64,000 nt of DNA, taken from NCBI RefSeq assembly GCF_025165815.1, contig NZ_JAFFZE010000016.1, positions 214,047-278,046 of the forward strand, given 5' to 3'. The stretch comes from Actinophytocola gossypii. Lineage in GTDB: Bacteria; Actinomycetota; Actinomycetes; Mycobacteriales; Pseudonocardiaceae. The notes under the pieces were generated by a model, which did no database searches, was not told the origin of the DNA, and worked only from the letters and a program-made list of their open reading frames with translations. Below are positions 12,121-45,670 of this stretch, in pieces. Every line of letters begins with the position of its first letter. The stretch's first letter is position 1. The position numbers and the translations under genes are program-made.

Positions 12121-12135
12121 CCGAAAGGTCCTCCC

Positions 12136-15100: not shown

Positions 15101-17412
15101 AGCGACGTCGAGTACACCGGCAGCGCGGGCTCGCGGACGGTCAGGTCGTGCGCGGCCTCGGCCAGCTCGCCGACCAGGGGGTCCATGTGGTGGCTGTGGA
15201 ACGCGACGTCGGAGTTGACCCGCTGGACGTGCAGCTCCGGGTCGGCGGTCCACTGCTTGACCACCACGTCCAGCACCGCGGTGTCGCCGGCGATCACGGT
15301 CGAGCTCGGCGCCGCGGAGATCGCGGCGACCACGCCGTCGTGCCCGGTCAGGCGGCGCTGTGCCTCCTCGAACGGCAGGTTGACCATGGCCATGCCGCCG
15401 TTGCCGGCGACCCGACGCAGCAGCGCCGAGCGGCGGCAGATGAGCCGGGCGCCGTCGGCGAGGTCGAGGATCCCGGCGACGACCGCGGCCGCGATCTCAC
15501 CGACCGAGTGCCCGATCACCGCGGCCGGCCGGATGCCGTGCTCGTACCAGACCTCGGCCAGCGCCACCTGCATCGCGAAGATCATCATCTGGATGACGTC
15601 GGTGTGCAGCAGGTCGCCCTCGAGCAGCGCGCGGCGCGGCGAGATCCCGGCCTCGTCGAGGAAGACCGGCTCCAGCTCGTCGAGCACCCGCCCGAACGCC
15701 GGCTCGGTGGCCAGCAGCTCCCGGCCCATGCCGATCCACTGCGAGCCGTGCCCGGAGAACACCCACACCGGGCCCTTCGCGGCGCCCTCGAGCGGCTGGC
15801 CCGAGGTGATCCCGTCACCCGGCTCGTCCACCCCCACCTGCCGCAGGCGTGCGATCAGCTCGTCCTGCCCGGTCGCGGTGATCGCGGTGCGGTACGCGAG
15901 GTGGCTGCGCCGGCGGGTGAGCGTGTAGGCAACATCGGCCAGCTCGGCGTCCGCGGCCCGCAGCCCGTCGCCGCCGAGCCACTGCGCCAGCCGGACCGCG
16001 TACTCGCGCACGGCCTCCGGCGAGTTCCCGGACAGCGGGTAGACGCGCTGCGCGGTGCCCTTGTCCAGCGCGGTGACCGGCTGGTCGAGCCGGGGCGCCT
16101 GCTCCAGCACGAGGTGCGCGATCGTGCCGCCGTAGCCGTAGCCGGACACCCCGGCCCGGCGCGCGCCCGCGGTGCTCGGCCACGGGGTGACCTCGGTGAC
16201 CACCCGCAGGCCGGTCTCGGGCCAGGGGATGTCCGGGTTCGGCGTGTCGAAGTTGAGGCTCGGCGGGATGGCCGCGTGCTCGATCGCGAGCACCGCCTTG
16301 ATCACCCCGGCGATTCCGGACGCGGCCTCGAGGTGCCCGATGTTGGTCTTGACCGAGCCGATCAGGCACGGCCGGTCCACCGGACGGCCCGCGCCGTAGA
16401 CCGCGGCCAGCGCGGCGGCCTCGATCGGGTCGCCGGCCCGGGTGCCGGTGCCGTGCGCCTCCACGTAGTCGACCGACTCGGGGGCGACCCCGGCGCGCAC
16501 GCAGGCCTCGCGCAGCATCTCGGTCTGCGCCTCGCCGCTCGGGGCCATGATCCCGTTCGTCCGGCCGTCCTGGTTCACCGCGCTGCCCCGGATGACCGCG
16601 AGCACCCGGTCGCCGTCCCGGCGGGCGTCGGAGAGTCGTTTGAGGACGACGATCCCGCAGCCCTCGCCCCGGCCGTACCCGTTGGCGGAGGCGTCGAAGG
16701 ACTTGGAGCGGCCGTCCGGGGCGAGCGCGCCGGCGGTGTCCATCACCATCGTGAGGCCCGGGGCGACCATCAGCATGATCCCGCCGGCGATCGCCACCGG
16801 GGTCTCGCCCTGGCGCAGGCTCTGGCAGGCCAGGTGCAGCGCCACCAGGGAGGACGAGCACGCGGTGTCCACGACCATGCTCGGCCCGTGCAGGTCGAGC
16901 ACGTAGGACACCCGGTTGGCGACCGCGCACATGGACGACCCGATGCCGGTCCAGGCCTCGATCCTGGGCAGGTCCTCGAGGAGCTTGCGGCCGTGGTCGT
17001 CGGTGTTGACGCCGACGAACACACCGGCGTTGGTGCCGGCGAGGTCGCCCGGCACGATCCCGGCGTGCTCCAGGGCCTCCCAGGTGACCTCCAGGGTCAT
17101 CCGCTGCTGCGGGTCCATCAGGGTGGCCTCGCGCGGGGACACCCCGAAGAAGGCGGCGTCGAACTCGTCCACGTTGGACACGAAGCCGCCCTGTTTGGAC
17201 ACCTTCCGCACCGCGGCCGCGTTCTCCGGCGCGGCCTCGTAGTGTTCCCACCGGTCCGGTGGTACCTCGCCGATCGCGTCGAAGCCGTCCACGAGCGCGT
17301 TCCAGAACGCCTCGGGTGAGTTGATGTCGCCGGGCAGCCGACAGCCCATACCGACGATCGCCACCGGCTCCGGAGCGTCGGGCTGTCGGTCGGCTTCGTT
17401 CGAAGTCACCAT
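12136..17412 (-). CDS. iterative type I polyketide synthase, KS-AT-DH-KR-ACP, no TE (6-MSAS / naphthoate-synthase architecture)
   Basis: KS active site DTACSSSL plus HGTGT. AT GHSVGE. DH HPVQGTEIIP. KR Rossmann GTYLITGGLGVLG. ACP GLDSV. Start set at the internal ATG (MVTSNEADR), which is preceded by GGAGGA; about 1758 aa. Confidence 0.9.
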   Translation of the reverse strand: MVTSNEADRQPDAPEPVAIVGMGCRLPGDINSPEAFWNALVDGFDAIGEVPPDRWEHYEAAPENAAAVRKVSKQGGFVSNVDEFDAAFFGVSPREATLMDPQQRMTLEVTWEALEHAGIVPGDLAGTNAGVFVGVNTDDHGRKLLEDLPRIEAWTGIGSSMCAVANRVSYVLDLHGPSMVVDTACSSSLVALHLACQSLRQGETPVAIAGGIMLMVAPGLTMVMDTAGALAPDGRSKSFDASANGYGRGEGCGIVVLKRLSDARRDGDRVLAVIRGSAVNQDGRTNGIMAPSGEAQTEMLREACVRAGVAPESVDYVEAHGTGTRAGDPIEAAALAAVYGAGRPVDRPCLIGSVKTNIGHLEAASGIAGVIKAVLAIEHAAIPPSLNFDTPNPDIPWPETGLRVVTEVTPWPSTAGARRAGVSGYGYGGTIAHLVLEQAPRLDQPVTALDKGTAQRVYPLSGNSPEAVREYAVRLAQWLGGDGLRAADAELADVAYTLTRRRSHLAYRTAITATGQDELIARLRQVGVDEPGDGITSGQPLEGAAKGPVWVFSGHGSQWIGMGRELLATEPAFGRVLDELEPVFLDEAGISPRRALLEGDLLHTDVIQMMIFAMQVALAEVWYEHGIRPAAVIGHSVGEIAAAVVAGILDLADGARLICRRSALLRRVAGNGGMAMVNLPFEEAQRRLTGHDGVVAAISAAPSSTVIAGDTAVLDVVVKQWTADPELHVQRVNSDVAFHSHHMDPLVGELAEAAHDLTVREPALPVYSTSLVDPRDDAPRDGSYWAGNLRNPVRFAGAVGAALADGYRAFVEVSPHPVVSYSINEVLAAEGIGDAVVAHTLRRNRPERTTLVDNLGTLHCTGVPVDWSAAFPGGRLAPLPGIAWQHREFRVEVPAAGVHTRLHDEDSHTLLGSPLTVNGTSTVRLWQTRLDHGSRPYPGDHPVQGTEIIPAAVLLNTFLAASGGHVLTDVSLRVPVSVAAPRELQVVHMDGSLRLASRLPGEAAEQDSGWQTHTTAVVPAVADLGGGGTLALEELRNRCVERLDPDYVVDRLASIGVAAMGFPWRINRIRRGPGELFVRVVADPNGTLPRTWASILDAALSAASVVFDGPATLRMPAHIRQVVVGGRPPEEAVLSVRVQPGSTDTVDVRVAAPDGSVVASLTGLRYGVLDGDIGAPASPRRLVHEVVWRALELPKRTHELDQVVFVGDTGFGGELGASFAEAGVPCRAVTEPSELDGAEVTAATAVVVLPRRTEDAWDSSLAATWLLTRTVQRLSTWDTQPAVWCVTRGVREATELAGVGDAALWGVGRVLGGEHPGLWGGIVDLDGADPLGSVGMLRQVLAARPADDVITVRGTDIEVARLSPVDGGADRPGVSCRPDGTYLITGGLGVLGLEVAQWLAGRGARRLVLAGRRGLPPRSSWNTVTDPNLASQIEAVRALEAAGVTVRVVALDIADRAQAARLLSANELGLPPIRGVVHAAGVLDNRMAADVDEASLVTVMRPKVAGALVLHELFPPGSLDFLALFSSAGLLLGLPGQTSYAAGNAVLDGLATHRRAGGRTDTISLGWTSWRGLGMSTSSAAIDAELSARGTADITAAEAFRSWEYAARHDVAHVAVLRTIPLLPGMTRPALLGELTAEEPAAAPGGTAAPWAELRGDDLREYLVREVAGEVAGEIKLAADELDVRRPLIEMGLDSVMTQIIRNRLERTFRVSLPATLLWNRPTVQAIGDFLAELLTPDSATEPGDDEPETPLPPAVAA

Positions 17413-17539
17413 GGTTGCTCTCGTCCTCCTCACCACACCAACGGCAAGTCTGCGGTGAGGGACGTCCCGAGAGCATCGGTCGGTGATCACGGACGGGCTG
17501 GGACAGTGACCCGACAGCGACCCGCGCCGAACCGGAAAG

Positions 17540-18217
17540 CTAACGCTCGCGCGCTCTCGCCGGGAGCAGGAAGCCGACCGCGACCAGCCAGAGCAGCGCG
17601 GCGAACCGGCCGACGGGAATGAGCGTCGTCGCCGGCTCGGTGACGAAGGTGAGGCTGGACGCCAACGACAGCCCGGCGATCACCAGACCGGCGGCGGACA
17701 GCCAGCCGGGCAGCAGCGCGGCCCGCCGGGCGACCAGGCTGACCGCGCCCACGAGCAGCGCGCCGGCGGCGACGTGCGCGAACCCGCCGAGACCGAAGTA
17801 CAGGTAGTGCATGGCCCGCCGGACGGCCGGCTCCTCGGTCACGCCCGGGTGCGCGAGGACCCACTGCACCAGGCCGTTCAGCGCGAGGAACGCCGCCGCG
17901 ACCAGGCCACCGGCGGCGGCGACCGCCGTGTGCGCGGGGAGCCCCGGCGCGAGCGAGCGCAGCCGGACGACCAGCGTCGCGGTGAGCACGGCGAGGGCGA
18001 GCCCGGTGCCGAACTGGAGGAAGCCCACCCAGGACACCAGCGTCGGGTGCCCGGCGTAGAACGCGGCGATGCCGGCGTCGTCGCCGAACGGGTTGGTGTA
18101 GACCGCGCCGGCGAACACCAGGCCGGCGAGCAGGCTCACGACGAACAGGCCCGCGGTGACCAGTGCCGGGACGGCGACCGACGCACCGCTGGTGGAACGG
18201 GAAACCGTTGTGGTCAT
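17540..18217 (-). CDS. integral membrane protein (DUF4386-like), 6 predicted TM helices
   Basis: Hydrophobic ORF. Start set at the internal ATG (MTTTVSRS). Confidence 0.55.
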   Translation of the reverse strand: MTTTVSRSTSGASVAVPALVTAGLFVVSLLAGLVFAGAVYTNPFGDDAGIAAFYAGHPTLVSWVGFLQFGTGLALAVLTATLVVRLRSLAPGLPAHTAVAAAGGLVAAAFLALNGLVQWVLAHPGVTEEPAVRRAMHYLYFGLGGFAHVAAGALLVGAVSLVARRAALLPGWLSAAGLVIAGLSLASSLTFVTEPATTLIPVGRFAALLWLVAVGFLLPARARER

Positions 18218-25943: not shown

Positions 25944-26112
25944 GACGCCGCCCTCGGATGGCTGTCGACCGAACCGGCCGAGCCGAAACTTTTTCGGCTT
26001 TCATCGAGGGTCCGGGAGACAGGTCCCTCGGACATGAGTCCGAGGTCCCGGCGGCGTGGGAATGCCCGTAACGATCCGGACGGGCGGCGTCAGGCCTGGC
26101 GGCGGTCTCGGG

Positions 26113-29100
26113 TCAGGTCGGCTCCCGGTTCACGGCTCGGGTGATCGCGGACTCCACCGCGGCCACCCGGTCGGCGAGCAGGCCGACGGCGCCGATCGCC
26201 CTGGTCATGGGGTCTTCGGCGGTGCCGCCGAGGGCCTTGTCGCGGAGGTAGGCGGCCTTGACGTCGGACCAGCGGGCGGCCTGCTCCTCGGTCAGCCGGC
26301 CGCGGAGTTCGGCGAGCTTGAGCAGGTTGGCCTCCGCGCCGGCGGTGAGGGTCTGGGCCTCGCCGAGGTAGTGATCGTCGATCATCGACTCCAGTTCGGC
26401 GTCGTTCATCACCGGGACGATGCGTTCGGCCAGCTTGTTCATGTTGCGGTACGAGCCCTGCAGCAGGAACGGTGGCTCGGTGCGGGACGCGTCGGCCTGG
26501 GCCGCTGACGCGATGTACGCCTTGTTGTTCGCCAGCACCACCTGTTGGACCCGCAGCAGCTTGCGCAGCACCGACAGCACCTGCTCCAGCTCGACCGACG
26601 AGTACGGGTGCGTCAGCGAATCCGCGCGCACCGACTCGTCGCCGCGGGCGAGGCGGACCAGCAGCTCGATGTCCGAGCGCTCCCGTGTGGACAGTGGCGC
26701 CAGGACCTCGTTGGACGTCAACGAGTTCTCGATGTAGCTCAGCGCGAACAGCTCGTCCTTCCCGGACAGCACGTCACCGAGGTTCCACACGTCGGCGCGG
26801 TTGGCGAGCATGTCCGGGATACGGAACCGCTTGCCCTGCTCGGTGTACGGGTTGCCGGCCATGCACACCGCGAACCGCTTGCCGCGCAGGTCGTAGGTGC
26901 GGGTCCGGCCGCGCCACACGCCCTCCATCCGGCGCTGGGCGTCGCACAGGCTGATGAACTTCTGCAGCAGCTCGGGGTTGGTGTGCTGGATGTCGTCCAG
27001 GTACAGCAGCACGTTGTTCCCCAGCTCCAGCGCGAAGCTGATCTTCTCGACCTCCTGCCGCGCGGTCGCGTTGGGCGCGTCGGCCGGGTCCAGCGAGGTC
27101 ACGTCGTGGCCGAGTGCGGGACCGTTGACCTTGACGAACACCAGGCCGAGGCGGTTCGCCACGTACTCCATCAGCGTGGTCTTGCCGTAGCCGGGCGGGG
27201 AGATCAGCAGCAGCAGGCCCATCTGGTCGGTCCGCTTGCCCTCGCCGGTCGCACCGAGCTGCTTGGCCAGGTTGTCGCCGATCAGCGGCAGGTACACCTC
27301 GTCCAGCAGCCGGTTGCGCACGAACGCGCTCATCACCGTCGGGCGGAACTCGTCCAGGCGCAGCCGGGCGCGCTCGCGGGCGACCAGGTCGTTGCGCCGG
27401 CGCTGGTACGCCCGGTAGGCCGGCACCGTCTCGTCGCGGAACCGGCGGGTGCGGGTGAGCAGCTCGTCGACCCGGACCTCCAGCCCGCGGTCGACGATCC
27501 TCGGGTGCGCGCCGAGCAGGGACTCCACTGTGGACGACAACGGCGCCGACGAGTCGTGTCGGGGCAACGTCGAGCCGCACAGCTCGATCGCCACCGCCTC
27601 GGGAAGGTCGTCGGGTCGACCGTCCACTGTGGGCAGGAAGGCGGCCAGCCAGGCGTGGGCCAGCTGGTGCCGTGCCGCGAGGTCGTCGCCGAGGGCGCGC
27701 AGGTCGTCGTCGAAGTCGGTGCGGTCGCCGAGCGCGCGGCGGAACCGTTCCACCAGGGTGCGGGCGGCGGCGCTGGTGACGAACCCGAGCGGGGTCGACG
27801 CCAGCTCCTCGACCAGGTACTCGGCCGCCAGCGCGGGTGGCTCGCCGAGGCCGGTGGCGCGGTGGAACTCGGCCATCGCCGCCGCCAGTTCGGTGCACAG
27901 GTCGGCGATCGCGGGTACCGGGCCGAACGCCGACCGGGCCCTGGCCAGCGAACCGGCGCGGGTGGACCAGCGCTGCCTTGCCGGCTCGTCGGTGCCGAAC
28001 GCCCAGAACAGCTGGGCCGCGGCCCGCGCGTCCGGCGGGTACCGCAGCAGCCCGGCCCCGGCGGACAGGCGCAGCAACGTCGCCAGGATCGCGGCCGCGT
28101 CGTGGTCGTGCACGCCGCGCTCGTAGCCCTCGTCGTAGCGGGCCTCGGCGGCGGCGCGGACCAGGTCGAGCAGGTCGTCGGGCGGGGTGTCGGGCGGCAC
28201 GTCGGCGAGCATGCTCGCGGCCAGGTACTCCGCCCGGTACACCTCCGCCGACTCCGAGACCAGCGACTGGTCCCAGAACGGGCGGGTGGCGGCGAACTCC
28301 GGGTCGGCCAGCGGCTCGCGGAAGTCCGTGCCGGTGACCGCGAGCGCCATCTCGCCGTCCTTGGGCACCAGCGTGAGGTCGACGGCCTGGGTGTTGACCG
28401 CGAACCGGTGCCGGCCGAACCGGACGGTCTCGCCGCCGTCACCGAACAGGTCCGCGCGGTCGCGCAGGGACCGGCCCGCCTCCTGCCGGGCGGCCTTGAG
28501 CCGGCCGGCCAACTCCTCCGCGCGCACCGAGTCGTCCAGCGTGCGCAACTCGTCGGCCACGGCGCGGACCTTGGCGACCATCGGGTCGGAGGCGAAGTAG
28601 GTGTTCACCTCGTCCACCGAGGACAGCGTGGCGACCCGGCGATTGACGCTGGTGAGCACCCGCTCGGCGGAGTCCACCAGCCGGTCCGCGCGCCGGGCCT
28701 GCTCGTCCACCAGCGACTGCTTGCGTGAGGAGAACGCCTCGTAGACCTCGGTGCGCTTCTCGGCGAGCTCGGCGAGGAAGTCGTCGAACTCGGCGAACCG
28801 GGACTCCAGGTTCTCCAGCCGGAGCAGCAGCGTGCCCAGCCCGTCGTCGCAGCGGCGAGGGGTGTCGGCGACCGCGAGCGCGCCGGTGATCGCCTGCCCG
28901 AGCAGCGCGAACTCGGCGGCGAACGCGGCCCTGCCCTCGGTGGACAGCAGCTCCCGGCGCCGGCCGTCCAGCGTGGCGCGGGCCCGGTTGACGCCGCCGA
29001 GCACCTCGCCGATCCGCTCCAGGATCCCGGTGCGCACGGTCGCGTCGGCGATCTCCAGCCCGCCGACGACCTCGGTGACGATCTCCAGTGCCGCCGCCTG

Positions 29101-31020
29101 CTCGCCCAGCCGCTCGCCGACGGGCCCGGCCTCGGCGACCGTCGCGATCGCCTCGGCGTCGGCGACCAGCGCGGCGACCCGCTCGTGGTAGCCGGTGAAC
29201 GCGTCCGGGCCGCGCAGGAACTCCACCGCGCGCCCGGCGGTCGCGTCCAGCTCGGCCGACAGCAGCTCGGCCAGCTCGTCGATCCGCGTGGTGTCGACAT
29301 ACCGCAGCTCACGCAGGGTGACCAGCCTGCCCTGTGCGCGGCGCAGCTCGGCGAGCTGGGCCACCCACTGGTCGGCGGTCTTCGGCGCCTCGCCGCGCGC
29401 CCGCCGCACCAGCGACCGGATCTCCCCGTCGGCCTCGGCGAGGGCCTTCGCCGACGACGCGGTCAGCTCCTGCACGGTCTCGAACTCGGCCAGCACCTGC
29501 TCGGCGGTGGCACGCACGTCGGCGACCGGGGTGCGCAGGTCGCCCAGCTCCGGCTCGCCGAGCCAGTGGTAGCTGTCGAACGCCCTGGTGCACGCGGCGA
29601 TCAGGCCCTCGAACATCGCCGTCGACGGGGACATCTCGCCGACCATCCTGGCCACCGACAGGCAGTCGGAGACGCCACGCACCAGGTCGGCGTTGCCGAT
29701 CCGTTCCAGCGGGCCGGTGCCGACCGGCTGCGCGGCGGCGTAGCTGTCCGATGTGTACGGTGTCTGCCACACCTGCATCGGGTGCACCCGCGTGGGTTCC
29801 TCCGAATCGGCGCGGAACGCGACCAGCGTGCCGTCGTCGAACAGCGAGTACCCGTGGCAGGGCAGCGGGGTGGCGACCTCCTTGCGGATCACGTTGTACG
29901 GCAACAGGAGCGTGCGGCCCTCCCGCCGGGCGTGGAAGACGTAGAGCACGTCCTCGCCGTTGGGCGACCGGACGACCCCCTCGAACTCCAGGTCGTCGGT
30001 GTCGGTGTCGAAGGTCCTGGACGCGCCGGTGGCCAGGTAGTAGCCGCCGGGGAAGATGAGCCCCTGGTCCTCGGGCAGCCGCTGGCACGCCTGCCCGATG
30101 CCGTCGAGCCGCACCACCGACCTGGTGCGGGTGTTGAAGACCAGGTACCGCCAGACCGTCTCGTTGTAGGGCAGGATCTTCAGCAGGATCAGCGGGCCGA
30201 CCCTGGCGTGGTACACGGCGGCGTCGGCGAGGCTCTGCAGCGGCTCGTCCACCGGCTCGGAGTAGACGCCCTCGCCGGACTCGGTGTTGTTCTCCACCTT
30301 GATGGTGAGGTCGCCGTTCAGCGTCTCGATGAACACCTCGTCGCCGATCGAGATGTGCGGGTGCCGGCCGAGCACGTGGTCGTCCCGCGTGGTCTCGGTC
30401 CACTCGAAGTCGTGCGACGCCGGGAAGACGTGATCGCGCTCGCCCGCGTTGTCCAGATAGGACACCGTGCCGTTCGGGTCGATCCGCCAGCGCAGCACCT
30501 TGATGTCCTCGGTGCGCGGGCCGGTCTGGAACACCGCGAGCAGCTTGCCCTCAACCGGGCGCAGCTGCAGCAGCCTGGTCTCCCGGTAGTAGCGGTACAG
30601 CTCGGTGAAGTCGCGGCGGAACCGCTCGTCCCGCAACAGCTCCGGCCGCTCGTCGGCGCCCGCGTCGGCGAACCGGAACGCGTCGCCGTCCCGGGTGAAC
30701 CGGTGCAGCGAGAACACGTCCTCGATCGTGGTCTCCGGCTTGAGGCCGATGAACACGTTGTAGCCGAACAACATCAGCCCACGGGTACCGTCCTGGATGG
30801 ACAGGATGTCGCGCGGAACGCAGTTGTTGACGGTGCGGATCCGCTCGGCACCGACCAGCCGCAGCTCGGTGCTGCCGAACACCTCGAGCCGCCGCGCGTT
30901 GAGCGCCTCCGCGCGGCGGGCCAGCTCCCCGGCCTGTTCGGCGAGCCGGGCGCGCAGCACCTCGTAGGTGCGCGCGTCCAGCCCGTCCACGGTGGCCGGG
31001 GCCTCCTCGGTCGTCGTCAC
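26113..31020 (-). CDS. giant (1635 aa) flotillin-associated protein with a C-terminal AAA+ ATPase module
   Basis: Walker A SPPGYGKTT, Walker B LLYLDDI, sensor CMAGNP at about residues 1150-1400. Long predicted helical/coiled-coil middle region and a beta-rich N-terminal 400 aa without recognisable motifs. GTG start overlaps the flotillin TGA. Confidence 0.8.
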   Translation of the reverse strand: MTTTEEAPATVDGLDARTYEVLRARLAEQAGELARRAEALNARRLEVFGSTELRLVGAERIRTVNNCVPRDILSIQDGTRGLMLFGYNVFIGLKPETTIEDVFSLHRFTRDGDAFRFADAGADERPELLRDERFRRDFTELYRYYRETRLLQLRPVEGKLLAVFQTGPRTEDIKVLRWRIDPNGTVSYLDNAGERDHVFPASHDFEWTETTRDDHVLGRHPHISIGDEVFIETLNGDLTIKVENNTESGEGVYSEPVDEPLQSLADAAVYHARVGPLILLKILPYNETVWRYLVFNTRTRSVVRLDGIGQACQRLPEDQGLIFPGGYYLATGASRTFDTDTDDLEFEGVVRSPNGEDVLYVFHARREGRTLLLPYNVIRKEVATPLPCHGYSLFDDGTLVAFRADSEEPTRVHPMQVWQTPYTSDSYAAAQPVGTGPLERIGNADLVRGVSDCLSVARMVGEMSPSTAMFEGLIAACTRAFDSYHWLGEPELGDLRTPVADVRATAEQVLAEFETVQELTASSAKALAEADGEIRSLVRRARGEAPKTADQWVAQLAELRRAQGRLVTLRELRYVDTTRIDELAELLSAELDATAGRAVEFLRGPDAFTGYHERVAALVADAEAIATVAEAGPVGERLGEQAAALEIVTEVVGGLEIADATVRTGILERIGEVLGGVNRARATLDGRRRELLSTEGRAAFAAEFALLGQAITGALAVADTPRRCDDGLGTLLLRLENLESRFAEFDDFLAELAEKRTEVYEAFSSRKQSLVDEQARRADRLVDSAERVLTSVNRRVATLSSVDEVNTYFASDPMVAKVRAVADELRTLDDSVRAEELAGRLKAARQEAGRSLRDRADLFGDGGETVRFGRHRFAVNTQAVDLTLVPKDGEMALAVTGTDFREPLADPEFAATRPFWDQSLVSESAEVYRAEYLAASMLADVPPDTPPDDLLDLVRAAAEARYDEGYERGVHDHDAAAILATLLRLSAGAGLLRYPPDARAAAQLFWAFGTDEPARQRWSTRAGSLARARSAFGPVPAIADLCTELAAAMAEFHRATGLGEPPALAAEYLVEELASTPLGFVTSAAARTLVERFRRALGDRTDFDDDLRALGDDLAARHQLAHAWLAAFLPTVDGRPDDLPEAVAIELCGSTLPRHDSSAPLSSTVESLLGAHPRIVDRGLEVRVDELLTRTRRFRDETVPAYRAYQRRRNDLVARERARLRLDEFRPTVMSAFVRNRLLDEVYLPLIGDNLAKQLGATGEGKRTDQMGLLLLISPPGYGKTTLMEYVANRLGLVFVKVNGPALGHDVTSLDPADAPNATARQEVEKISFALELGNNVLLYLDDIQHTNPELLQKFISLCDAQRRMEGVWRGRTRTYDLRGKRFAVCMAGNPYTEQGKRFRIPDMLANRADVWNLGDVLSGKDELFALSYIENSLTSNEVLAPLSTRERSDIELLVRLARGDESVRADSLTHPYSSVELEQVLSVLRKLLRVQQVVLANNKAYIASAAQADASRTEPPFLLQGSYRNMNKLAERIVPVMNDAELESMIDDHYLGEAQTLTAGAEANLLKLAELRGRLTEEQAARWSDVKAAYLRDKALGGTAEDPMTRAIGAVGLLADRVAAVESAITRAVNREPT

Positions 31021-32984
31021 GGCTTGGGCGCGACCGCGGCCGCCGCGTCGTCACCGACGGTCACCGGCAGCGTCTTCAGGTCGACGCCGTCGCGCACCAT
31101 CTTCATCAGCATGGCCGACATCGAGAGGTTCTTGACGTCGTCGGTGCCCATCGAGCCGAGGATCTGCTTGACGTCGTCGGTGAAGTCGGCCGACCCGTTC
31201 AGCCACGGCCCGGCGAGCGTCCGCGCCACGTCGGAGTGCTCGACGAACCCGTCGACGCCCTTGCCGAGCGCGATCGAGCCCATCAGCTTGTCGAAGAACA
31301 CCGAGTCGCCGCCGACGATGTCGATGTCGGCCTGCTCCAGGCCCTTCGCGAGCACGGCGGCTTGGGCCTCGGCGACCTCGCGCTGCGCGGTGATGCCGGC
31401 CATCCGGACGTCCTTCTCGGTCTCCAGGCGGAGCCGGAACTCCTCGTGCGCGCGGGAGGTGTCGTCCAGCGCGGCGAGCGCGGCGGCCTTCTCGGTGAGG
31501 CCCTCGGCCTCGCCCTTGAGCCGCTCGCGCAGCGCGTCCGCGCCGGCCAGCGCCTTCTCCCGGATCACGACGGACTCCGCGCGGCCCTCCTTCTCGATGA
31601 CCTCAGCACCGCGCTCGCGCACCTGCACGTCGGCCAGGCCCTCGGCCGCGGCCTCGGCCTGGACGCCCTCGGCGAGCCGGATCTTCGCCGCGGCCTCCAG
31701 CTCGGCGGCCTGCCGGCCGGCCTCGGCGAGCTCCAGCTGCTCGCGCGCCTTGTGCTTGGCGGCGGCCTCCGCGGCCTCGGCCGCCTTGATGTCCTTGACC
31801 AGGTTCTCCTGGGCCTCGGCCTCCGCGCGGATGACGATGGCCTGGCGCTCCCGCTCGGCCTCCTCGACCGCGCGCAGCCGCTTGATGTTCTCCTCCTGCT
31901 CGGCGACCGTCCGGTCGACCGCGACCCGCTCCCGCACGACCTCGGCGACCGAGCGCTTCTCGACCTCGACCTCCTTGTCCTTGGCGGTGTTGGCCATCGC
32001 GATCTCCCGCTCGCGGGCGACGACCTCGAGCTGCCGGTCCTTCTCGATCCGCTCGGTCTCGATGGCGATGACCCGCTCGCGGTTCTTCTCCGCGACGGCG
32101 ACCTCGCGGGCGCGGTTCTGGTCCTGGATGCCGAGCTGCTCGTCGGTGCGCAGGTTCGCGGTCTGGGCCTTGAGCCGCTCCTCGGCCTGGACCTTGGCGG
32201 TCTCGGCCTCCTCGCGGGCCTTCATGGTCTCGATCTCGCGGCGCTGCCGGTTCTCCGCGTCGGCCTGCCGGCGCTCCAGCTCGAGGATGGCCTCGCGCGC
32301 GTCGACGTTCTGCCGGGTGATCTCCTTCTCCTCGTTGCGGGTGAACTCGTTGGTGCGCACGTGCTCGATCGCGGTCAGCTCGGTGATCTTGCGGATGCCC
32401 TGCGCGTCGAGGATGTTGTTGGTGTCCAGTTGGGACAGCGGGGTCTGCTCGAGGAAGTCGATCGCCGCGTCCTCGAGGCTGTACCCGTTGAGGTCGGTCC
32501 CGATGACCGCGAGGATGCGGTCCCGGAACTCGTCGCGCTTGGTGTAGAGGTCGACGAAGTCGAGGTGCTTGCCGACGGTCTTGAGCGCCTCGGAGAACTT
32601 GGCGTTGAACAGCTCCTGCAGGGTAATCTGGTCCGACGCCCGCTCGGTCCCGATCGCCTGCGCGACCTTGATGACGTCCTCACTGGTCTTGTTGACCCGG
32701 ACGAAGAACGTGATCCGGATGTCCGCCCGGATGTTGTCCTGGCAGATCAGCCCTTCGTGGCCGGTGCGCTCGATCTCGATGGTCTTGACGGAGATGTCCA
32801 TGTACTCCGCCTTGTGCAGCACCGGAAGCACGACGGCCCCGGTGAACGTGACATGCACGTTCCGCACCTTCGAGACGATGAGCGCCTTCCCCTGCTCCAC
32901 CTTGCGGAAGAGCCGGCTGATGGCGATCAGCAGAATGAGCGCGACGGCGAGCACCACGCCGACCGCGATGAAGATAGCCTCCAT
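31017..32984 (-). CDS. flotillin family SPFH/band-7 protein (FloT/YqiK-like)
   Basis: N-terminal TM helix, SPFH domain and a long E/A/R-rich coiled coil (EA repeats). 655 aa, ATG preceded by AAAGG. Confidence 0.9.
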   Translation of the reverse strand: MEAIFIAVGVVLAVALILLIAISRLFRKVEQGKALIVSKVRNVHVTFTGAVVLPVLHKAEYMDISVKTIEIERTGHEGLICQDNIRADIRITFFVRVNKTSEDVIKVAQAIGTERASDQITLQELFNAKFSEALKTVGKHLDFVDLYTKRDEFRDRILAVIGTDLNGYSLEDAAIDFLEQTPLSQLDTNNILDAQGIRKITELTAIEHVRTNEFTRNEEKEITRQNVDAREAILELERRQADAENRQRREIETMKAREEAETAKVQAEERLKAQTANLRTDEQLGIQDQNRAREVAVAEKNRERVIAIETERIEKDRQLEVVAREREIAMANTAKDKEVEVEKRSVAEVVRERVAVDRTVAEQEENIKRLRAVEEAERERQAIVIRAEAEAQENLVKDIKAAEAAEAAAKHKAREQLELAEAGRQAAELEAAAKIRLAEGVQAEAAAEGLADVQVRERGAEVIEKEGRAESVVIREKALAGADALRERLKGEAEGLTEKAAALAALDDTSRAHEEFRLRLETEKDVRMAGITAQREVAEAQAAVLAKGLEQADIDIVGGDSVFFDKLMGSIALGKGVDGFVEHSDVARTLAGPWLNGSADFTDDVKQILGSMGTDDVKNLSMSAMLMKMVRDGVDLKTLPVTVGDDAAAAVAPKP

Positions 32985-32997
32985 AGTGGACCTTTCG

Positions 32998-33573
32998 TCA
33001 AGCCGGCGCGACCCAGAAGAACTCGCCGTCGGTGTCGTAGTCGAAGATCAGCGCCCGGTGCCCGGCGGCGAGCGCGTGCTCCCCGGTCTGCCGAACCTGG
33101 ACGATCGCGGAGGACCCGTCCGCGGCGGTGACCTCGGCCTGCCCGAAGTCCGCCGAGACCCGCCCGGTCCGAATCACGCACTCCCGCCCGACGAAGTCGC
33201 TGCGCGAGGCTTCCGTGGTGGTGGTGTAGAGGCGCCGCAACGGCACCGCGACCACCCGCGCGGCGAGCAGCCCCAGGAACAGGGCCACGAGCAGCACCCC
33301 GATCCCCACCAGCACGTTCCCGCCGAGGAGCACCCCACCCACCAGCGAGACGAACCACGCCACCACGACCAGCACGGACAACGTCACGGTGACCGGAACG
33401 CCGCCGAGCCCCACCCCGTCGAGCAACCCGCCGTCGTCGCCCCCGTCGCCACCGGCCAGCTCGACGTCGAACGTGCCGAGCAGCACGAGCACCCAGTACA
33501 GAACGACGACGACGAGCAGGAAACTGAGCAGGACGGCCGGAAAGGACAACGCGGCATCGACGAACTCGGCCAT
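32998..33573 (-). CDS. NfeD-like membrane protein (short YuaF/YqiJ type) with C-terminal OB-fold
   Basis: TM helices followed by a C-terminal beta domain (ECVIRTGRVSADFGQAEVTAADGSSAIVQVRQ). Sits 13 nt upstream of the flotillin gene in the classic nfeD-flotillin arrangement. Start at the internal ATG (MAEFVDA). Confidence 0.7.
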   Translation of the reverse strand: MAEFVDAALSFPAVLLSFLLVVVVLYWVLVLLGTFDVELAGGDGGDDGGLLDGVGLGGVPVTVTLSVLVVVAWFVSLVGGVLLGGNVLVGIGVLLVALFLGLLAARVVAVPLRRLYTTTTEASRSDFVGRECVIRTGRVSADFGQAEVTAADGSSAIVQVRQTGEHALAAGHRALIFDYDTDGEFFWVAPA

Positions 33574-40177: not shown

Positions 40178-42670
40178 TCAGCTTGTCATGCGGACCGCGC
40201 CGATGACGGGTTCGTGCTCGTCGACGGCGGTGAAGGCGCAGACGAGGTAGTCGCCGACCCGGACCGTCGCGTCGGCGCCGGGGAGCTTCTTGACCACCTC
40301 GGGGTCCAGGCCGGAGGTCTGGACGGCCTCGTTCGGGCCGGCGACCGTGTACAGGGTGGCCGGGCCGGGCGTGACCACCAGGAGGGTCACGGCGTGGTCG
40401 GCGACGGCCAGCAACCGCACCTCGGTCGCGTCGGGTACGGCGTACTCCCAGGGCTGGCCCTCGGACGTCCGGACCACGCCGTCGGTCTCCCCCTCCTCGC
40501 CCCGGACGACGAACACGCCGTCGCCGTCGGTCAGGAGGTTCGTCGGGGGGTGTCCGGCGGTGCGGTCCTCGACCGAACCGACCCCGGCGCCGGAGATGTC
40601 GACGGGTCTGGCGAAGTGTCCACTTCCCACCAGGTGGAGACGTCGCAGGCCCGCGGCGTCGAAGCAGCCGGCCAGTAGGTGGTGCTTGCCGGCGGGCCGC
40701 AGGAAGCCGCCGCCCATGAAGTTGGAGAACTCACCGCATCCCTCCAGCTCCGTGCCCGGCGCCCAGCCGGGGTCGTCCTTGCTCCACTCGAGCAACCTCG
40801 TCGAATCGGCACACCTCGACACCGCCAGGACGCTGTCGTCCACCGCGTGGGCGAAGCCGGTCAGCCGGCAGGACGGTTCCACCGGCTCGGCACCGACGTC
40901 CGTCGACCCCAGGCGCTCTCCCGTCCTGGTGTCGAACCAGGTCAGGTCCGTGCTGTGCTCGGTCTGGGACGCACCGCCGCCGTAGGACGCGGTCACCAGG
41001 CCGTCGCTGATCGACAGCGACGTCCCGCCGGTCTTGCCCACCGCGCCGGAGAAGCCCTCGTCGACCAGGGAGACCGGCTCGTCCCACTCGGGTTCGCCCG
41101 ACTCCACCGAGATGACCTGCAGGGTGTGGCACCGTTGCCCGCCGTCCCCGCCCCGCGGTCCGTAGGTGACCGCGCCGAGGCCGCTCGCCGTGACGTTCGG
41201 GCTCAGGTTGCACAGGAAGGCGTCCCCGGGGACCTCCCACGACCACAGCTCCGCACCGGTCTCGACGTCGTACGCGGTCAGCCCCTTCCAGTGGCCGAAC
41301 ACCACACCGTCCGGCAGGGGCCACATGCCCTCGTAGAAGCCCGCCTCCTCCCTGGTCATCGCCCAGTGGAACCCGCCGACACCGTTGGGGCCCGGCTGCT
41401 CGGCGGCGATGCCGTCGTCCGACCCGGACGACGGACCGTCCCGCCAGGGCGCCAGGACGACGACCGCGACGACGGCGGCGACGATCAGCACCGACAGCGC
41501 GCCGACCACGGCGGCCCCACCCGTCCGGCGCCCGGACGGGCGGTGCGGCGGCGGGTACGGGGCGGCGGCGGCCGGGACGTCCCAGGTGCGCGCTCCGAGA
41601 CTGCCCAGGCCGATCTGGTGCGCGCCGAGCGCGACCGCGGTCTCGGGCTGGTCCAGGGCCGTCGGGACGACCCCCAGCTGCTCGGCCATGAGCGTCGCCA
41701 CCAGCGGGATCCGGCTCGATCCGCCGACCAGGTACACCCCGGCCAGCCAGCCGACGTCCATGCCGGCGCCTCGGGTCGTGGAGCCAAGCAGCTCGACGCT
41801 GCGCAGCAGGCCCGGCCGGACCGGCGTCTCCAGCTCCGCCCGCGTGACCAGCACCGAACCGAACGGCTCCGGCATCGCCACCTCGGTCTGCGGGTGCTCG
41901 GACAACGCCTCCTTGGCGACCCGGACGTCCTCCCGCAACGCCAGCGACGCCCGGCGGTCCTCGGCCGAGCCCGGGGTGACGAGGCGACGCCAGGCGTCCG
42001 GGTCCCGCCCGCCGACCTGGCGGCCGAGGTGGTCGAGCAGCGCCTGGTCGATGTCCAGGCCGCCCAGGTCGGACAACCCGGACTCGGCCAGCACGGTGAG
42101 GCCGTGCTGGCCGGCGCCGACGACCGCCGCGTCGAACGTGCCGGCGCCGAGGTCGTAGACCGCCAGCGCCTGTCCCGGCGCGAGTACCCGCCCGGTCGCC
42201 GACGCGAAGTGCGCCGCGGCCGCCACCGGCTCGGGCACCAGCTGGACGACCGCGCCGACGCCGGCCTGCCGGGCGGCCTCCAGCAGGACCGCGCAGCGCG
42301 CGGTGCCCCACCGCACGGGGTGGGTGAGCCGAACCTGGTCCGGCAGCACACCCCCGAGCTGCCGGCTCGCCTCCGCGACGACCTTGCCGAGCACCGCGCC
42401 GAGCGCGGACGCCACCGGCACCACGACGTCGCCGAGCAGCAGCGTGCCGTCGTCGACCCGGCGCTTGGGGTTGGGCTCGAACCGGGCGGGCGCGGACCGG
42501 GCCAGCCGGACCGCCTCACGACCGGCCACCAGCCGGCCGTCCTCGGTGGCGAACACCGCCGACGGCATCGCCGACGCTCCGTCCACATCGACCACTCTCG
42601 GCGGCCGGCCGGGCGCGGACAGCACCGCCACCGTGTTGGACGTTCCCAGGTCAACGGTCAGTACGCGCAC
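40178..42670 (-). CDS. Hsp70-family actin-like ATPase domain fused via a TM helix to a C-terminal PQQ-like beta-propeller (predicted extracytoplasmic)
   Basis: N-terminus VDLGTSNTVAV and later DLGAGTFD (Hsp70/actin phosphate-1 and -2 motifs). Hydrophobic segment AAVVGALSVLIVAAVVAVVVLA. C-terminal half rich in repeated W/G/D beta-strand motifs (PQQ/WD-like). Start placed at the GTG (VRVLTVDLG). Confidence 0.75.
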   Translation of the reverse strand: MRVLTVDLGTSNTVAVLSAPGRPPRVVDVDGASAMPSAVFATEDGRLVAGREAVRLARSAPARFEPNPKRRVDDGTLLLGDVVVPVASALGAVLGKVVAEASRQLGGVLPDQVRLTHPVRWGTARCAVLLEAARQAGVGAVVQLVPEPVAAAAHFASATGRVLAPGQALAVYDLGAGTFDAAVVGAGQHGLTVLAESGLSDLGGLDIDQALLDHLGRQVGGRDPDAWRRLVTPGSAEDRRASLALREDVRVAKEALSEHPQTEVAMPEPFGSVLVTRAELETPVRPGLLRSVELLGSTTRGAGMDVGWLAGVYLVGGSSRIPLVATLMAEQLGVVPTALDQPETAVALGAHQIGLGSLGARTWDVPAAAAPYPPPHRPSGRRTGGAAVVGALSVLIVAAVVAVVVLAPWRDGPSSGSDDGIAAEQPGPNGVGGFHWAMTREEAGFYEGMWPLPDGVVFGHWKGLTAYDVETGAELWSWEVPGDAFLCNLSPNVTASGLGAVTYGPRGGDGGQRCHTLQVISVESGEPEWDEPVSLVDEGFSGAVGKTGGTSLSISDGLVTASYGGGASQTEHSTDLTWFDTRTGERLGSTDVGAEPVEPSCRLTGFAHAVDDSVLAVSRCADSTRLLEWSKDDPGWAPGTELEGCGEFSNFMGGGFLRPAGKHHLLAGCFDAAGLRRLHLVGSGHFARPVDISGAGVGSVEDRTAGHPPTNLLTDGDGVFVVRGEEGETDGVVRTSEGQPWEYAVPDATEVRLLAVADHAVTLLVVTPGPATLYTVAGPNEAVQTSGLDPEVVKKLPGADATVRVGDYLVCAFTAVDEHEPVIGAVRMTS

Positions 42671-42785
42671 CAGTTCTCCACCCCTGCCACTCGGCCGTGC
42701 TGGTGCCAGAGGGTCGGGGTCGGTACGCGTCAGCGACAAGGCAAGTGCGGCGGCCACTTCTGGCCGGGTGGGCCTACCAGGGGGT

Positions 42786-44228
42786 CTACTCGAAGATGCC
42801 CTGCCCGGGAGCGAGCACGTGCCGCGGGTCGTAGGTCGCCTTGGCCAGGGCGAACCGCGGGTACCGGTCGCCGTAGTGGGCGCGCCAGTCGGCCGGGGTG
42901 AGCGGGATCGCGCCAACCGGGTAGTGGGTGCCGCCGACCGCGCGGACCTGGTCGTACAGGTCGCGGTTCACGCCGAGCAGGCGCTGCACGTCCGCCTCGT
43001 TCGGCGGGTCCACGGCGCGCAGGATCGCCAGCAGGAAGATCACCTCGCTGTCCGGCACCGTCACGAACGGCAGGGTCAGCAGCTCCCTCGGCACCGGGTA
43101 CAGCAGGACCACGCCGCCCGCGTCGGCCGGGGTCAGGTCGGCCAGGACGTCGGCGACGTAGGCGTCGGTCGCGGCGTCGGGGACGAACACGTTGATCCAC
43201 GGGCCGGGCAGGCGCAGCGGCTTGAGGTCCTCGACCAGGGCGTAGATCCGGTTCAGCCAGTCGAAGTACGGCATGTCCACGATCTCGGTGGACGCCGGGT
43301 CGAGGCCGGCCAGGAGCGCCGCGTCGTCCGGCACCTCCGGCGGGGTGTGGTACTCGACGCCTTCCAGCATGTACCGCCAGCCGCCCTCGGCGGGGATCAG
43401 CTGGCCCTCCAGGTAGCTGAACCGGCGGTCCGCCAACGCCGTGCGCTGGGCGGCGGTCATCGACGCCAGGTCCGGGTAGTACAGGTTGTAGACCCGCGCC
43501 GTCGACTCCGCCGGCACCAGGCGAACGGCGGCGCGGACGATGATCGCGAACTGGCCGAGCCCGCCGAGCACCGATCGGAACAGTGCCGGGCGCACGGTCG
43601 GCGAGCAGCGCAGGTGCCGGCCGGAACCCGTCACGACCTCCAGCTCCAGCACGTTGTCGACCTGCATGCCGTGGTGCGAGCTGGCCCCGCCGATCCCGCC
43701 GACCGACAGCGTGCCGCCGACCGACAGGCCGAGGTAGTCGGTGTTCACCGGCGGCGTCAGGCCCTCGGCCACCGTGGCGCGCACCAGGTCCAACCACTGC
43801 ACGCCGGCGTCGACGACCGCGCGGTCCTGGTCGATCCGGTGGATCGTGGCCAGCGTGCGAGAGTCGATCACCACCCCGCCGCCGGCCTGGGCCTGGCCGA
43901 ACGTCGAGTGGCCCTGGCCGCGCATCGCGACCTTCAGGCCGTGCTCGCCCGCGTACTGGACCATCCGCACCACGTCGCGCACCGACCCGGGCCGCAGCAC
44001 CGCGACCGGGCGGCGGTGCACGAGGTGGCCGTAGTCGTCGGCCGCCTCGGCCAGGGACTCCTCGTCGACGACCAGCTCGCCGTCCAGGTGCGGCACGCCC
44101 ACCGCGCCCGGCTGGGTCGCCGACGCGTCGGCCTCGGTGACCCAGCCCAGCCCGGCGGGGTCGAACGCGACCACGGCCGCGGCGGCCGAGCCGGCCAGGA
44201 AGGTTCGCCGGCCGAGACGGGAGTCCAT
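42786..44228 (-). CDS. Tat-exported FAD-linked oxidase (FAD_binding_4, cytokinin-dehydrogenase/BBE-like fold)
   Basis: Twin-arginine signal MDSRLGRRTFLAGSAAAAVVAF. FAD-binding PCMH domain (VAVLRPGSVRDVVRMVQYAGEHGLKVAMRGQGHS). Start ATG preceded by AAGGAG. Confidence 0.8.
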   Translation of the reverse strand: MDSRLGRRTFLAGSAAAAVVAFDPAGLGWVTEADASATQPGAVGVPHLDGELVVDEESLAEAADDYGHLVHRRPVAVLRPGSVRDVVRMVQYAGEHGLKVAMRGQGHSTFGQAQAGGGVVIDSRTLATIHRIDQDRAVVDAGVQWLDLVRATVAEGLTPPVNTDYLGLSVGGTLSVGGIGGASSHHGMQVDNVLELEVVTGSGRHLRCSPTVRPALFRSVLGGLGQFAIIVRAAVRLVPAESTARVYNLYYPDLASMTAAQRTALADRRFSYLEGQLIPAEGGWRYMLEGVEYHTPPEVPDDAALLAGLDPASTEIVDMPYFDWLNRIYALVEDLKPLRLPGPWINVFVPDAATDAYVADVLADLTPADAGGVVLLYPVPRELLTLPFVTVPDSEVIFLLAILRAVDPPNEADVQRLLGVNRDLYDQVRAVGGTHYPVGAIPLTPADWRAHYGDRYPRFALAKATYDPRHVLAPGQGIFE

Positions 44229-44332
44229 TGGGCACGCTCCTTGCTGTTCGGAGTGGACGCCCGGCGGACGATAGTCCACGATCGACTCGCCCGGTTCCCC
44301 CTTTTGCCGAGCCCGATAAGGCAAACGGCCGC

Positions 44333-45670
44333 TCAGAACGCCGGTGCCAGCGCCGGCTTCGCGACGCTCGGCACCCGCCGGGTCGGCAGCTGGTGACGTC
44401 CGGTCGCACGGTTGCGGTTCGGGGCCCGGCTCGCCATCGCCGCCGCGGGGATCGGCGTCGGCTCGGCCGGCGCGCGCCGCTCGCCGGGCGCCGGGTTGTG
44501 CCGCATCACGGTCTCGGTCCAGGTCAGCACCGCGCCGGGGCTGTCCAGGCCGATCACACCCATCAGGCGGCCGTCGGCGACGTAGCCGACGACGGTGCCG
44601 TTGCCCTCCCTCGGGGTGCCGAGCGAGATCGTCTCCGTGCCCAGCTTCGGCACGCCGGCGGCCTGGATCCGCACGCCGAACTGCTCGGTCCAGAACCGGG
44701 GCATCGGCGTGAACGGCCGGGCGGCGGACCGACCGGCGAGCAGGCTCTCCGCCGCCGCGCGGCCCATCTCGACCGCGTTCAGCCAGTGCTCGATCCGGCG
44801 GGGCTTGTCGTCGAAGCGCAGGTTGGGCCACTGCGCCACGTCACCGGCGGCGACCACGTCCTCCGCGCCGACCACGTGACAGGTCGCCTCGCAGACCACG
44901 CCGTCGTCCAGCGGCAGGCCGGACCCGCGCAGCCAGGTCGTCGCCGGCACGGTGCCCGCGGCCACGATCGCGCACGCGGCCAGCATGAACGTGCCGTCGG
45001 ACAGGTGCAGCTCGATCCCGTCCGGTCGGGGCACCCAGTGCCGCACGGACGTCTCCAGGGCGAGGTCGACGTCGTGGTGGCGGTGCATCGAGGTCATCCA
45101 CTCGCCGAGCTGCGGGCCGAGCACGTTGCCGAGCAGGTTGGGGCCGCGGGCGACGATCGTCACCTCGCGGTTGAGGTGCCGCAGGCTGCACGCGATCTCG
45201 CAGCCGGTGAACCCGCCGCCGACGATCGCCACCGGGCCGCGGCCGGCCGACACCGCCCGCTCGATGCCGAGCGCGTCCTGCATGGTGCGCAGGCCGAGCA
45301 CCCGCGGGTCGTGGTACGGAACGCCGGGGATCCGCCTGGCCTCCATGCCGGTGGCGATGACCAAACCGTCGTAGGTGAGGTCCTCACCGCCGGGCAGGCG
45401 CAGGGTGCGCTTCTGCGGCACGAGGTACTGGACGCTGGTGTCGAGCCGCCACTTCGCGCCGATCTCCCGGTACGCGGGCAGCATCAGGTCGACCGGCTTC
45501 ATCGCGCCGGTGAGCAGCTGCTTGGACAGCGCGGGCCGGTGGTAGGGCGGGGTGGCCTCGTCGCCGATGATCACCAGCTCGCCGTTGAACCCGAGCTCCC
45601 GGAGCCGCTCCGCCGCGCGCAGGCCGGCCAACCCGGCACCCACGACGACCACACGTTCGAGCCGGCTCAT
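44333..45670 (-). CDS. FAD-dependent pyridine-nucleotide-disulfide-oxidoreductase-type ferredoxin reductase
   Basis: Two Rossmann motifs (VVVVGAGLAGLRAAE and VAIVGGGFTGCEIA), with ferredoxin/putidaredoxin-reductase-like length and order. ATGA overlap with the upstream membrane-ferredoxin gene. Confidence 0.85.
   Translation of the reverse strand: MSRLERVVVVGAGLAGLRAAERLRELGFNGELVIIGDEATPPYHRPALSKQLLTGAMKPVDLMLPAYREIGAKWRLDTSVQYLVPQKRTLRLPGGEDLTYDGLVIATGMEARRIPGVPYHDPRVLGLRTMQDALGIERAVSAGRGPVAIVGGGFTGCEIACSLRHLNREVTIVARGPNLLGNVLGPQLGEWMTSMHRHHDVDLALETSVRHWVPRPDGIELHLSDGTFMLAACAIVAAGTVPATTWLRGSGLPLDDGVVCEATCHVVGAEDVVAAGDVAQWPNLRFDDKPRRIEHWLNAVEMGRAAAESLLAGRSAARPFTPMPRFWTEQFGVRIQAAGVPKLGTETISLGTPREGNGTVVGYVADGRLMGVIGLDSPGAVLTWTETVMRHNPAPGERRAPAEPTPIPAAAMASRAPNRNRATGRHQLPTRRVPSVAKPALAPAF

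Follow-up and report, generated by a model that had tools for sequence, protein, structure and literature searches.

A small membrane protein, a flotillin-family protein and a giant AAA+ ATPase encoded by a conserved three-gene unit in Actinophytocola gossypii and other bacteria

Why should a gene for an ATPase of 1635 amino acids follow directly on a flotillin gene? The question is raised by a locus of Actinophytocola gossypii (Pseudonocardiaceae), which lies in a stretch of 64,000 nucleotides (contig NZ_JAFFZE010000016.1, positions 214,047 to 278,046) with a guanine-plus-cytosine (GC) content of about 71%. This whole stretch is called the window here, and coordinates refer to it unless another record is named. 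The three genes concerned encode a small membrane protein, a flotillin-type SPFH protein and the giant ATPase. The trio of the window belongs to a known kind of operon; the feature is real, and its linkage to flotillin is confirmed far more firmly than the initial annotation, made from the letters of the window, could know. The elements of the unit are as follows.

32998-33573, minus strand: gene 1, small membrane protein of 191 amino acids, ATG start
32985-32997, minus strand: spacer of 13 nucleotides, cgaaaggtccact, from the TGA of gene 1 to the flotillin ATG
31017-32984, minus strand: gene 2, flotillin-type SPFH protein of 655 amino acids, ATG start
31017-31020, minus strand: GTGA overlap of the flotillin TGA stop and the ATPase GTG start
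26113-31020, minus strand: gene 3, giant ATPase of 1635 amino acids, GTG start

The tight coupling of three minus-strand genes, with the 13-nucleotide gap and the TGA/GTG overlap, was described in the initial annotation and is confirmed to the base. The spacer holds GAAAGG, which is Shine-Dalgarno-like. The GC content at third codon positions is 0.91-0.97 in the three open reading frames, very high as in genuine genes of this genome. All three start sites are those of the public annotation, and the proteins are on public record with exact sequence or with 100% identity and coverage, the giant protein being 100% identical over its full length to an NCBI record of Actinophytocola gossypii. Co-transcription of the trio is likely.

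The first part of the answer comes from the distribution of the ATPase and its neighbours. Residues 1-1200 of the ATPase were searched against 1.84 billion cluster representatives and matched 1426 clusters (at 50% identity) with an expectation value (E) below 0.001, 483 of them with E below 1e-30. The matches are collinear and full-length (about 1600-1900 amino acids), down to 28% identity, and when one genome per species was scanned, at least 586 species proved to carry a relative. The synteny sample was composed of the best 80 loci and one Streptomyces locus; 77 of these include upstream DNA and come mostly from about 25 actinomycete genera, together with four assemblies labelled Deltaproteobacteria, Clostridia, proteobacterium and Acidobacteriota. 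A flotillin homologue is situated directly upstream of the ATPase gene in all 77 loci, and the trio arrangement is therefore far beyond chance. The small protein was detected by tblastn in 62 of the 77, and three Streptomyces loci in which it was not detected possess an open reading frame of 165-197 codons in the same place. All-against-all clustering of the open reading frames of 20 diverse loci gave exactly these three genes as the conserved ones. The ATPase shows 61-85% identity over 1600 amino acids across actinomycete orders, a degree of conservation that fits a core cellular machine.

The adjacency of the trio is also kept in eight of nine distant contexts, that is, around homologues of about 29-48% identity. 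The intact distant trios were found on four metagenome contigs (L082, L083, L087 and L088), in Vibrio alginolyticus and Deinococcus grandis, on the Pseudomonas fluorescens plasmid pQBR103 and on a Hymenobacter plasmid. The unit stays together across many bacterial phyla, and the possibility that the gene of the giant protein stands apart from flotillin as a rule in other genomes fails in related and distant contexts alike. The stop/start overlap itself is lineage-specific. Among the 70 loci with an assignable ATPase start it was present in 17, the other flotillin-ATPase gaps being 0-30 nucleotides in 8 loci, 31-150 in 32 and more than 150 in 13. The initial annotation had taken the coupling as a sign that the ATPase is a stoichiometric partner of flotillin; a dedicated, conserved partner is borne out by the 77 loci, while stoichiometry cannot be inferred from an overlap that most loci lack.

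What kind of protein is so strictly linked to flotillin? The C-terminal AAA+ domain had been considered the only recognisable module of the giant protein, which proved wrong, as Pfam finds both DUF3686 and DUF7902 upstream of it. The following features were distinguished.

29566-30927 (residues 32-485), minus strand: DUF3686 (Pfam E 1.3e-219)
28951-29205 (residues 606-690), minus strand: DUF7902 (Pfam E 9e-34), within the helical-bundle arm (about 425-860)
28312-28428 (residues 865-903), minus strand: small conserved beta domain with the motif G-HRF-VN, next to a helical domain at 929-1148
26761-27240 (residues about 1261-1420), minus strand: AAA+ core
27178-27201, minus strand: Walker A, SPPGYGKT
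26983-27009 (residues 1338-1346), minus strand: Walker B, LLYLDDIQH
26311-26760 (residues 1421-1570), minus strand: conserved C-terminal helical module, with QGSYRNM and the invariant R1525

The DUF3686 span takes in an N-terminal helix, continues as a beta-propeller-like domain (about 54-419) and reaches into the first part of a helical bundle. For residues 1-560, an AlphaFold model based on 50 diverse homologues has a predicted local distance difference test score (pLDDT) of 90.4 and a predicted template modelling (TM) score of 0.86; it contains a helix at 15-48, about 27 beta strands at 54-419 and a helical bundle at 425-560. In a Foldseek comparison of the N-terminal domain with the PDB, the top matches are all beta-propellers (DCAF1, WDR5, eIF3i, the prolyl-oligopeptidase propeller and clathrin), with E of 1e-6 to 1e-5 and TM-scores of just about 0.1-0.4. 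As modelled, the domain is propeller-like and close to no solved family. Propeller domains are typical protein-docking modules. No hydrophobic or membrane segment is predicted anywhere in the giant protein, which by its sequence should be soluble.

Upstream of the AAA+ core the initial annotation had assumed about 700 amino acids of coiled coil. In the AlphaFold model of residues 436-1635 (pLDDT 81.8) the helices measure 4-47 residues, mostly 15-47, and are packed in bundles at 425-860 and 929-1148 with the beta domain 865-903 between them; a long SMC-like coiled coil was rejected. This bears on the name under which the protein is found. As had been stated beforehand, databases do label it 'DNA repair ATPase', and the Pfam/NCBI name 'ATPase involved in DNA repair' is the sole support for the idea that it is a true repair enzyme of the SMC, RecN or Rad50 kind and stands beside flotillin incidentally. 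A check of the N-terminal 1100 residues matched no characterised repair family (SMC, RecN), and no SMC_N, Rad50, nuclease or DNA-binding domain was found by Pfam. The NTPase is one contiguous AAA+ module of MoxR/dynein type, whereas an ABC-type head would be interrupted by coiled coil; the bundled helices form no antiparallel coiled coil; and in all phyla sampled the gene is syntenic with genes of membrane proteins. In the literature searched, no paper was found that mentions DUF3686 or its accession PF12458. A role in DNA repair is therefore very hard to credit.

The AAA+ core holds, besides the Walker motifs, a sensor 1 (MAGNPY), the segment PDMLANRAD with R1408 and a beta-hairpin ahead of sensor 1. 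Pfam AAA and AAA_5 matches fall around residues 1270-1396, and about 150 more conserved residues follow C-terminal to the core, of which the helical module 1421-1570 is presumed to be a lid or an oligomerisation region. When the giant protein and a profile of the AAA region were compared with solved structures, only the P-loop was matched (classical AAA proteins, midasin and RuvB), so the AAA+ clade is not assignable from such sequence searches alone. Structure comparison of the model placed the core nearest to the MoxR-type remodellers CbbQ and NorQ, and also to dynein and midasin; with its pre-sensor-1 beta-hairpin, the core is of the MoxR/AAA_5 structural type. Membership in the classical AAA clade, hinted at by PF00004 and Cdc48 matches, was rejected, the structure being nearer to MoxR.

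The core is also the most conserved part of the giant protein, with a column identity of 0.78. Residue conservation among 26-43 homologues (31-63% identity) showed that Walker A SPPGYGKT, Walker B LLYLDDIQH, the sensor-1 Asn1390, Arg1408 and Arg1525 are invariant, including both aspartic acids, the glutamine and the histidine of Walker B. The invariant catalytic residues argue for an active NTPase. The D-D-I-Q form of Walker B resembles that of DnaA more than the D-E of MoxR.

Compared with the MoxR family (CbbQ, NorQ, RavA) and with the AAA_5 group of dynein and midasin, the giant protein has no Pfam AAA_3 (MoxR) match, carries D-D in place of D-E in Walker B and possesses an N-terminal extension of 1260 residues, which brings it to 1635 amino acids against about 300-500. 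Pfam found no VWA/MIDAS partner among the proteins of the trio, and the clustering of the 20 loci gave no further conserved neighbour. Because of the missing VWA partner and the size of 1635 amino acids, the protein is regarded as a distinct lineage with a MoxR-like core and not as a member of the MoxR family.

The flotillin of the window, named 'flotillin family protein' in databases, has a hydrophobic segment at residues 1-30 by hydropathy, the predicted N-terminal membrane anchor, followed by an SPFH/Band_7 domain at 28-171 (PF01145, 29.6 bits against a cut-off of 23.6). A long helical region rich in glutamic acid and alanine (about 230-560) and a C-terminal domain come next, and the helical region aligns with that of E. 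coli YqiK. By BLASTP the protein matches YqiK at E 4e-36 with 29% identity over 429 amino acids, covering the SPFH and helical regions, and is about 100 amino acids longer. With the NCBIfam model FloT the score was 19 bits, where 700 is the cut-off, the Pfam Flot C-terminal domain gave no match at E of 0.1 or less, and the protein alone gave no significant match to solved structures. Judged by these comparisons, it is a YqiK-type member of the flotillin family and not a FloT orthologue. With E. coli YqiK, which has no ATPase gene beside it, as the single outgroup, the ATPase-linked flotillins of different phyla are closer to one another than to YqiK.

The protein of gene 1 has hydrophobic segments at residues 1-41 and 50-113 by hydropathy and ends in a beta domain of about 65 amino acids. 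It thus combines a multi-pass N-terminus with a small, soluble C-terminal domain, and its gene lies directly upstream of an SPFH gene. It had been labelled NfeD, a label that is weakly supported. The protein and 13 orthologues gave no match to Pfam NfeD, YqiJ_N or YqiJ_OB and none in NCBIfam, and the protein alone had no significant match among solved structures. A profile of the 14 sequences searched against 177,635 PDB sequences had the OB domain of B. subtilis YuaF (2K14) at the top, with E of only 0.78. Comparison with E. coli YqiJ by hhalign gave a collinear alignment at 6.9% probability. A Deinococcus orthologue matches PF01957 (NfeD) in the same region at E 0.0024, below the cut-off. 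The profile further matches, at 99.6% probability, a Hymenobacter protein annotated 'DUF1449 family protein', the name which the window protein bears in UniRef and members of the family bear at NCBI. All of this sequence evidence points in one direction and weakly suggests a YqiJ/YuaF-like (DUF1449) protein, a divergent NfeD-type flotillin partner; this fits better than NfeD proper.

In yqiJ-yqiK of E. coli and yuaF-floT of B. subtilis, the gene of an N-terminally anchored flotillin comes after that of a small multi-pass protein ending in an OB-like domain; these operons differ from the trio in having no ATPase gene. The flotillin-YuaF operon (SPFH2 operon) was likewise described without an ATPase by Hinderhofer et al. 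(2009). The operon with the ATPase is known from an in-silico survey of PspA neighbourhoods by Ravi et al. (mSystems 2024, PMC11237479; preprint 2020), where it is given as a three-transmembrane protein typified by YqiJ/YuaF, then a protein with Band-7, coiled coil and flotillin regions, then one with beta-propeller, coiled coil and AAA+. The three genes, their order and their domain architectures are the same as in the window. A Hymenobacter locus with the full five-gene operon carries an ATPase 44.7% identical to that of the window, and this locus, together with its DUF1449 match, ties the window genes to the published description. Abbreviated versions of the operon, without PspA, were reported to be widespread (PMC11237479). 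The window and all actinomycete loci are of this abbreviated kind, differing from the full operon in having no CesT/Tir, PspA or phospholipase D gene nearby, and no CesT/Tir-PspA dyad adjoins the window trio, PspA having been looked for by tblastn with one distant query. The survey was carried out by computation only, and for the ATPase it offers neither a mechanism nor a fold class or family name. The view of the initial annotation that the giant protein had no described function is thus to be amended: the operon had already been listed, and no experimental study of the ATPase was found in the literature searched. The trio has been noted by comparative genomics and is experimentally uncharacterised in that literature.

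In which process the trio would work is suggested by its surroundings in other phyla. The Hymenobacter genes are ordered CesT/Tir (molecular chaperone Tir), PspA/IM30, DUF1449, flotillin (722 amino acids) and 'DNA repair ATPase'. On pQBR103 (L092/L090, positions 84437-97641 of the record) ten co-directional genes end in the trio, their order being YjfI (CesT/Tir), PspA/IM30, rhomboid, DUF2491, DUF350, DUF1190, a glutathionylspermidine-synthase-like protein, the small membrane protein, SPFH and ATPase. This cluster joins a polyamine and phage-shock-protein operon like yjfI-yjfJ(PspA)-yjfKLMC, and a rhomboid protease gene, to the trio. PspA is therefore adjacent in two phyla, the same contextual link as that reported in PMC11237479; it is also found 6 kilobases downstream of the trio in L082. 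A rhomboid gene (4192-4857) lies just upstream of the trio in L088, and TelA adjoins it in L087 and in the Vibrio alginolyticus locus L089. By tblastn with single distant queries, a search of limited sensitivity, none of the PspA, TelA and rhomboid links came up again in the actinomycete loci or the window; PspA, TelA, HipA and RNA-repair genes did not turn up again among the loci retrieved and were rejected as core members.

The adjacency of PspA in Hymenobacter and on pQBR103, the rhomboid protease gene in or beside the cluster on pQBR103 and in L088, and the chaperone-like assembly roles proposed in PMC11237479 would all agree with a different division of labour, in which flotillin is a platform only and the ATPase acts on ESCRT-III-like polymers of PspA/IM30 in the fashion of Vps4, or on misfolded or stalled membrane-protein complexes. 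PspA stands outside the conserved core, however, and flotillin and the small protein are the sole universally co-inherited partners of the ATPase. Its AAA+ domain is moreover not Vps4-like, having no MIT domain and a fold nearer to MoxR. We consider this division of labour unlikely.

The trio of Vibrio alginolyticus (L089, 2575-16304) is placed differently from those of actinomycetes, in an island-like context. On the same strand upstream of it are an RNA_ligase gene, an HD/KTI12/AAA_33 kinase-like gene and an R2K ATP-grasp gene; a helix-turn-helix-HipA toxin pair and TelA follow downstream, and an IS605 OrfB/TnpB gene is at the left edge. A variable island with HipA, TnpB and such an RNA-ligase/kinase/R2K cassette, the copies on megaplasmids and the build of the ATPase as a large multidomain NTPase with a sensor-like propeller would suit an anti-phage or conflict system, as the initial annotation had also proposed. 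The propeller would then sense an invader or membrane damage, and the ATPase would trigger a flotillin-dependent response such as abortive infection. Of 72,556 'plasmid' records 13 carry the family, and each of the 13 is a megaplasmid, a chromid or a mislabelled chromosome; the PLSDB records NZ_OL790812.1 and NZ_OL790811.1 (Proteus mirabilis, 4.08 Mb) and NZ_LT559118.1 (Nonomuraea, 11.85 Mb) are chromosome-sized, so the plasmid counts of the ATPase family are inflated. No copy was found in 50,697 phage records. PADLOC models gave only marginal matches of P-loop length for the ATPase (IetA and mad8, E 0.002-0.04; the IetA match, at E 0.002, covers about 29 residues) and none for the flotillin or the small protein, and no nuclease, pore or other effector domain was found by Pfam. 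The high identity across actinomycete orders and the intact synteny are unlike fast-evolving defence genes, and the genes flanking the trio in the window are metabolic. The proposal has thus found little support, and a conflict role appears quite improbable.

The reading best backed by context is the membrane-remodelling or repair function which the initial annotation had also named, with PspA/IM30 adjacent to the trio in two phyla. We hold with moderate confidence that the trio forms one membrane-associated machine, in which a dedicated ATPase remodels the flotillin scaffold or its clients in membrane maintenance and envelope stress. We infer physical interaction, hexamer formation, a remodelled substrate and a physiological role along the following lines. 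Flotillin would be anchored by its N-terminus and presumably build up an SPFH cage or scaffold at the cytoplasmic side of the membrane, with the gene 1 protein as its membrane partner of YqiJ/YuaF type. The ATPase would oligomerise through a MoxR/dynein-like AAA+ ring, and each subunit would extend a helical-bundle arm whose beta-propeller-like tip may dock on the flotillin assembly or on its clients. ATP turnover would then remodel the scaffold or the proteins held by it, by assembly, disassembly, opening or client extraction. The setting would be membrane maintenance or envelope-stress repair with PspA/IM30, whose gene belongs to the operon itself in some phyla and, in actinomycetes, may lie elsewhere in the genome.

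The pairing of an SPFH cage with a hexameric AAA+ enzyme at a membrane is realised in HflK/C-FtsH and in prohibitin-m-AAA, and the trio would share the principle of SPFH scaffold and AAA+ enzyme with HflK/C-FtsH. FtsH is a membrane-anchored protease of the classical AAA clade inside a cage facing the periplasm, whereas the window ATPase is predicted to be soluble, MoxR-like and without a protease domain, and its flotillin partner to face the cytoplasm. A more specific form of the machine is offered tentatively, as a possibility that we would not rate as probable: the giant protein may be the first ATP-driven flotillin regulator, a hexameric MoxR/dynein-like ring with six propeller-tipped arms gripping, opening, disassembling or recycling the cage.

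Several observations weigh against the machine proposed here. With Asp in place of Glu as the second acidic residue of Walker B, the ATPase may hydrolyse slowly or serve as a switch and not as a motor, and MoxR ATPases normally work with a VWA/MIDAS partner, which is missing here. A homologue in Aureibacter tunicatorum adjoins no SPFH gene, so the ATPase can exist unlinked; at that locus (L085/L086, 7253-12830) a gene with a PRiA4_ORF3 domain is upstream and a gene for an HflX-like GTPase downstream of the ATPase. A tblastn search with a single distant PspA query, which has limited sensitivity, detected no PspA in the window or among the other loci retrieved. The neighbour genes in the window are metabolic, and for the Vibrio copy, in its island with HipA, an RNA-repair-like cassette and TnpB, a conflict role would also fit.

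Around the trio in the window, a GT87 glycosyltransferase gene follows downstream after a gap of 169 nucleotides and a gene for an XRE-cupin regulator lies on the upstream side in divergent transcription, with the metabolic genes further out on the flanks. Neither of the two recurs in any related locus, and both were rejected as operon members. A perfect 8-bp hairpin, AGCCGAAA-AAG-TTTCGGCT, is situated at 25981-25999, 114 nucleotides past the ATPase stop and about 38 nucleotides ahead of the GT87 start; it has no T-tract and could be a terminator or a regulatory element. A scan of this DNA of 71% GC for promoters and terminators gave nothing useful. Elsewhere in the window, at 10465-17679 on the minus strand, a KS-AT-DH-KR-ACP module of a type I polyketide synthase (about 1847 amino acids) adjoins an AMP-binding gene of the fatty-acyl-AMP-ligase-like kind. 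At 40178-44840 a protein of 929 amino acids with only a partial Hsp70 match (residues 190-450) adjoins a FAD_binding_4 protein similar to cytokinin dehydrogenase.

The role of bacterial flotillins and the way in which they are assembled and dismantled are unsettled, and the models, B. subtilis FloT and E. coli YqiK, come without the third gene. The ATPase, which is strictly co-inherited and highly conserved and has its catalytic residues intact, offers an experimental handle on flotillin, and the ATPase family is present in tractable hosts, namely Streptomyces, Vibrio alginolyticus and P. fluorescens with pQBR103. The label 'DNA repair ATPase' is wrong throughout the databases, and renaming would be of practical value. 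Where the trio is joined to PspA/IM30 operons, which is a recurrent arrangement, two systems of membrane protection come together that are mostly investigated apart. If the tentative model of an ATP-driven flotillin regulator is true, the giant ATPase would correspond in bacteria to Vps4 with its action on ESCRT-III, and the turnover of flotillin assemblies in membrane repair would find an explanation.

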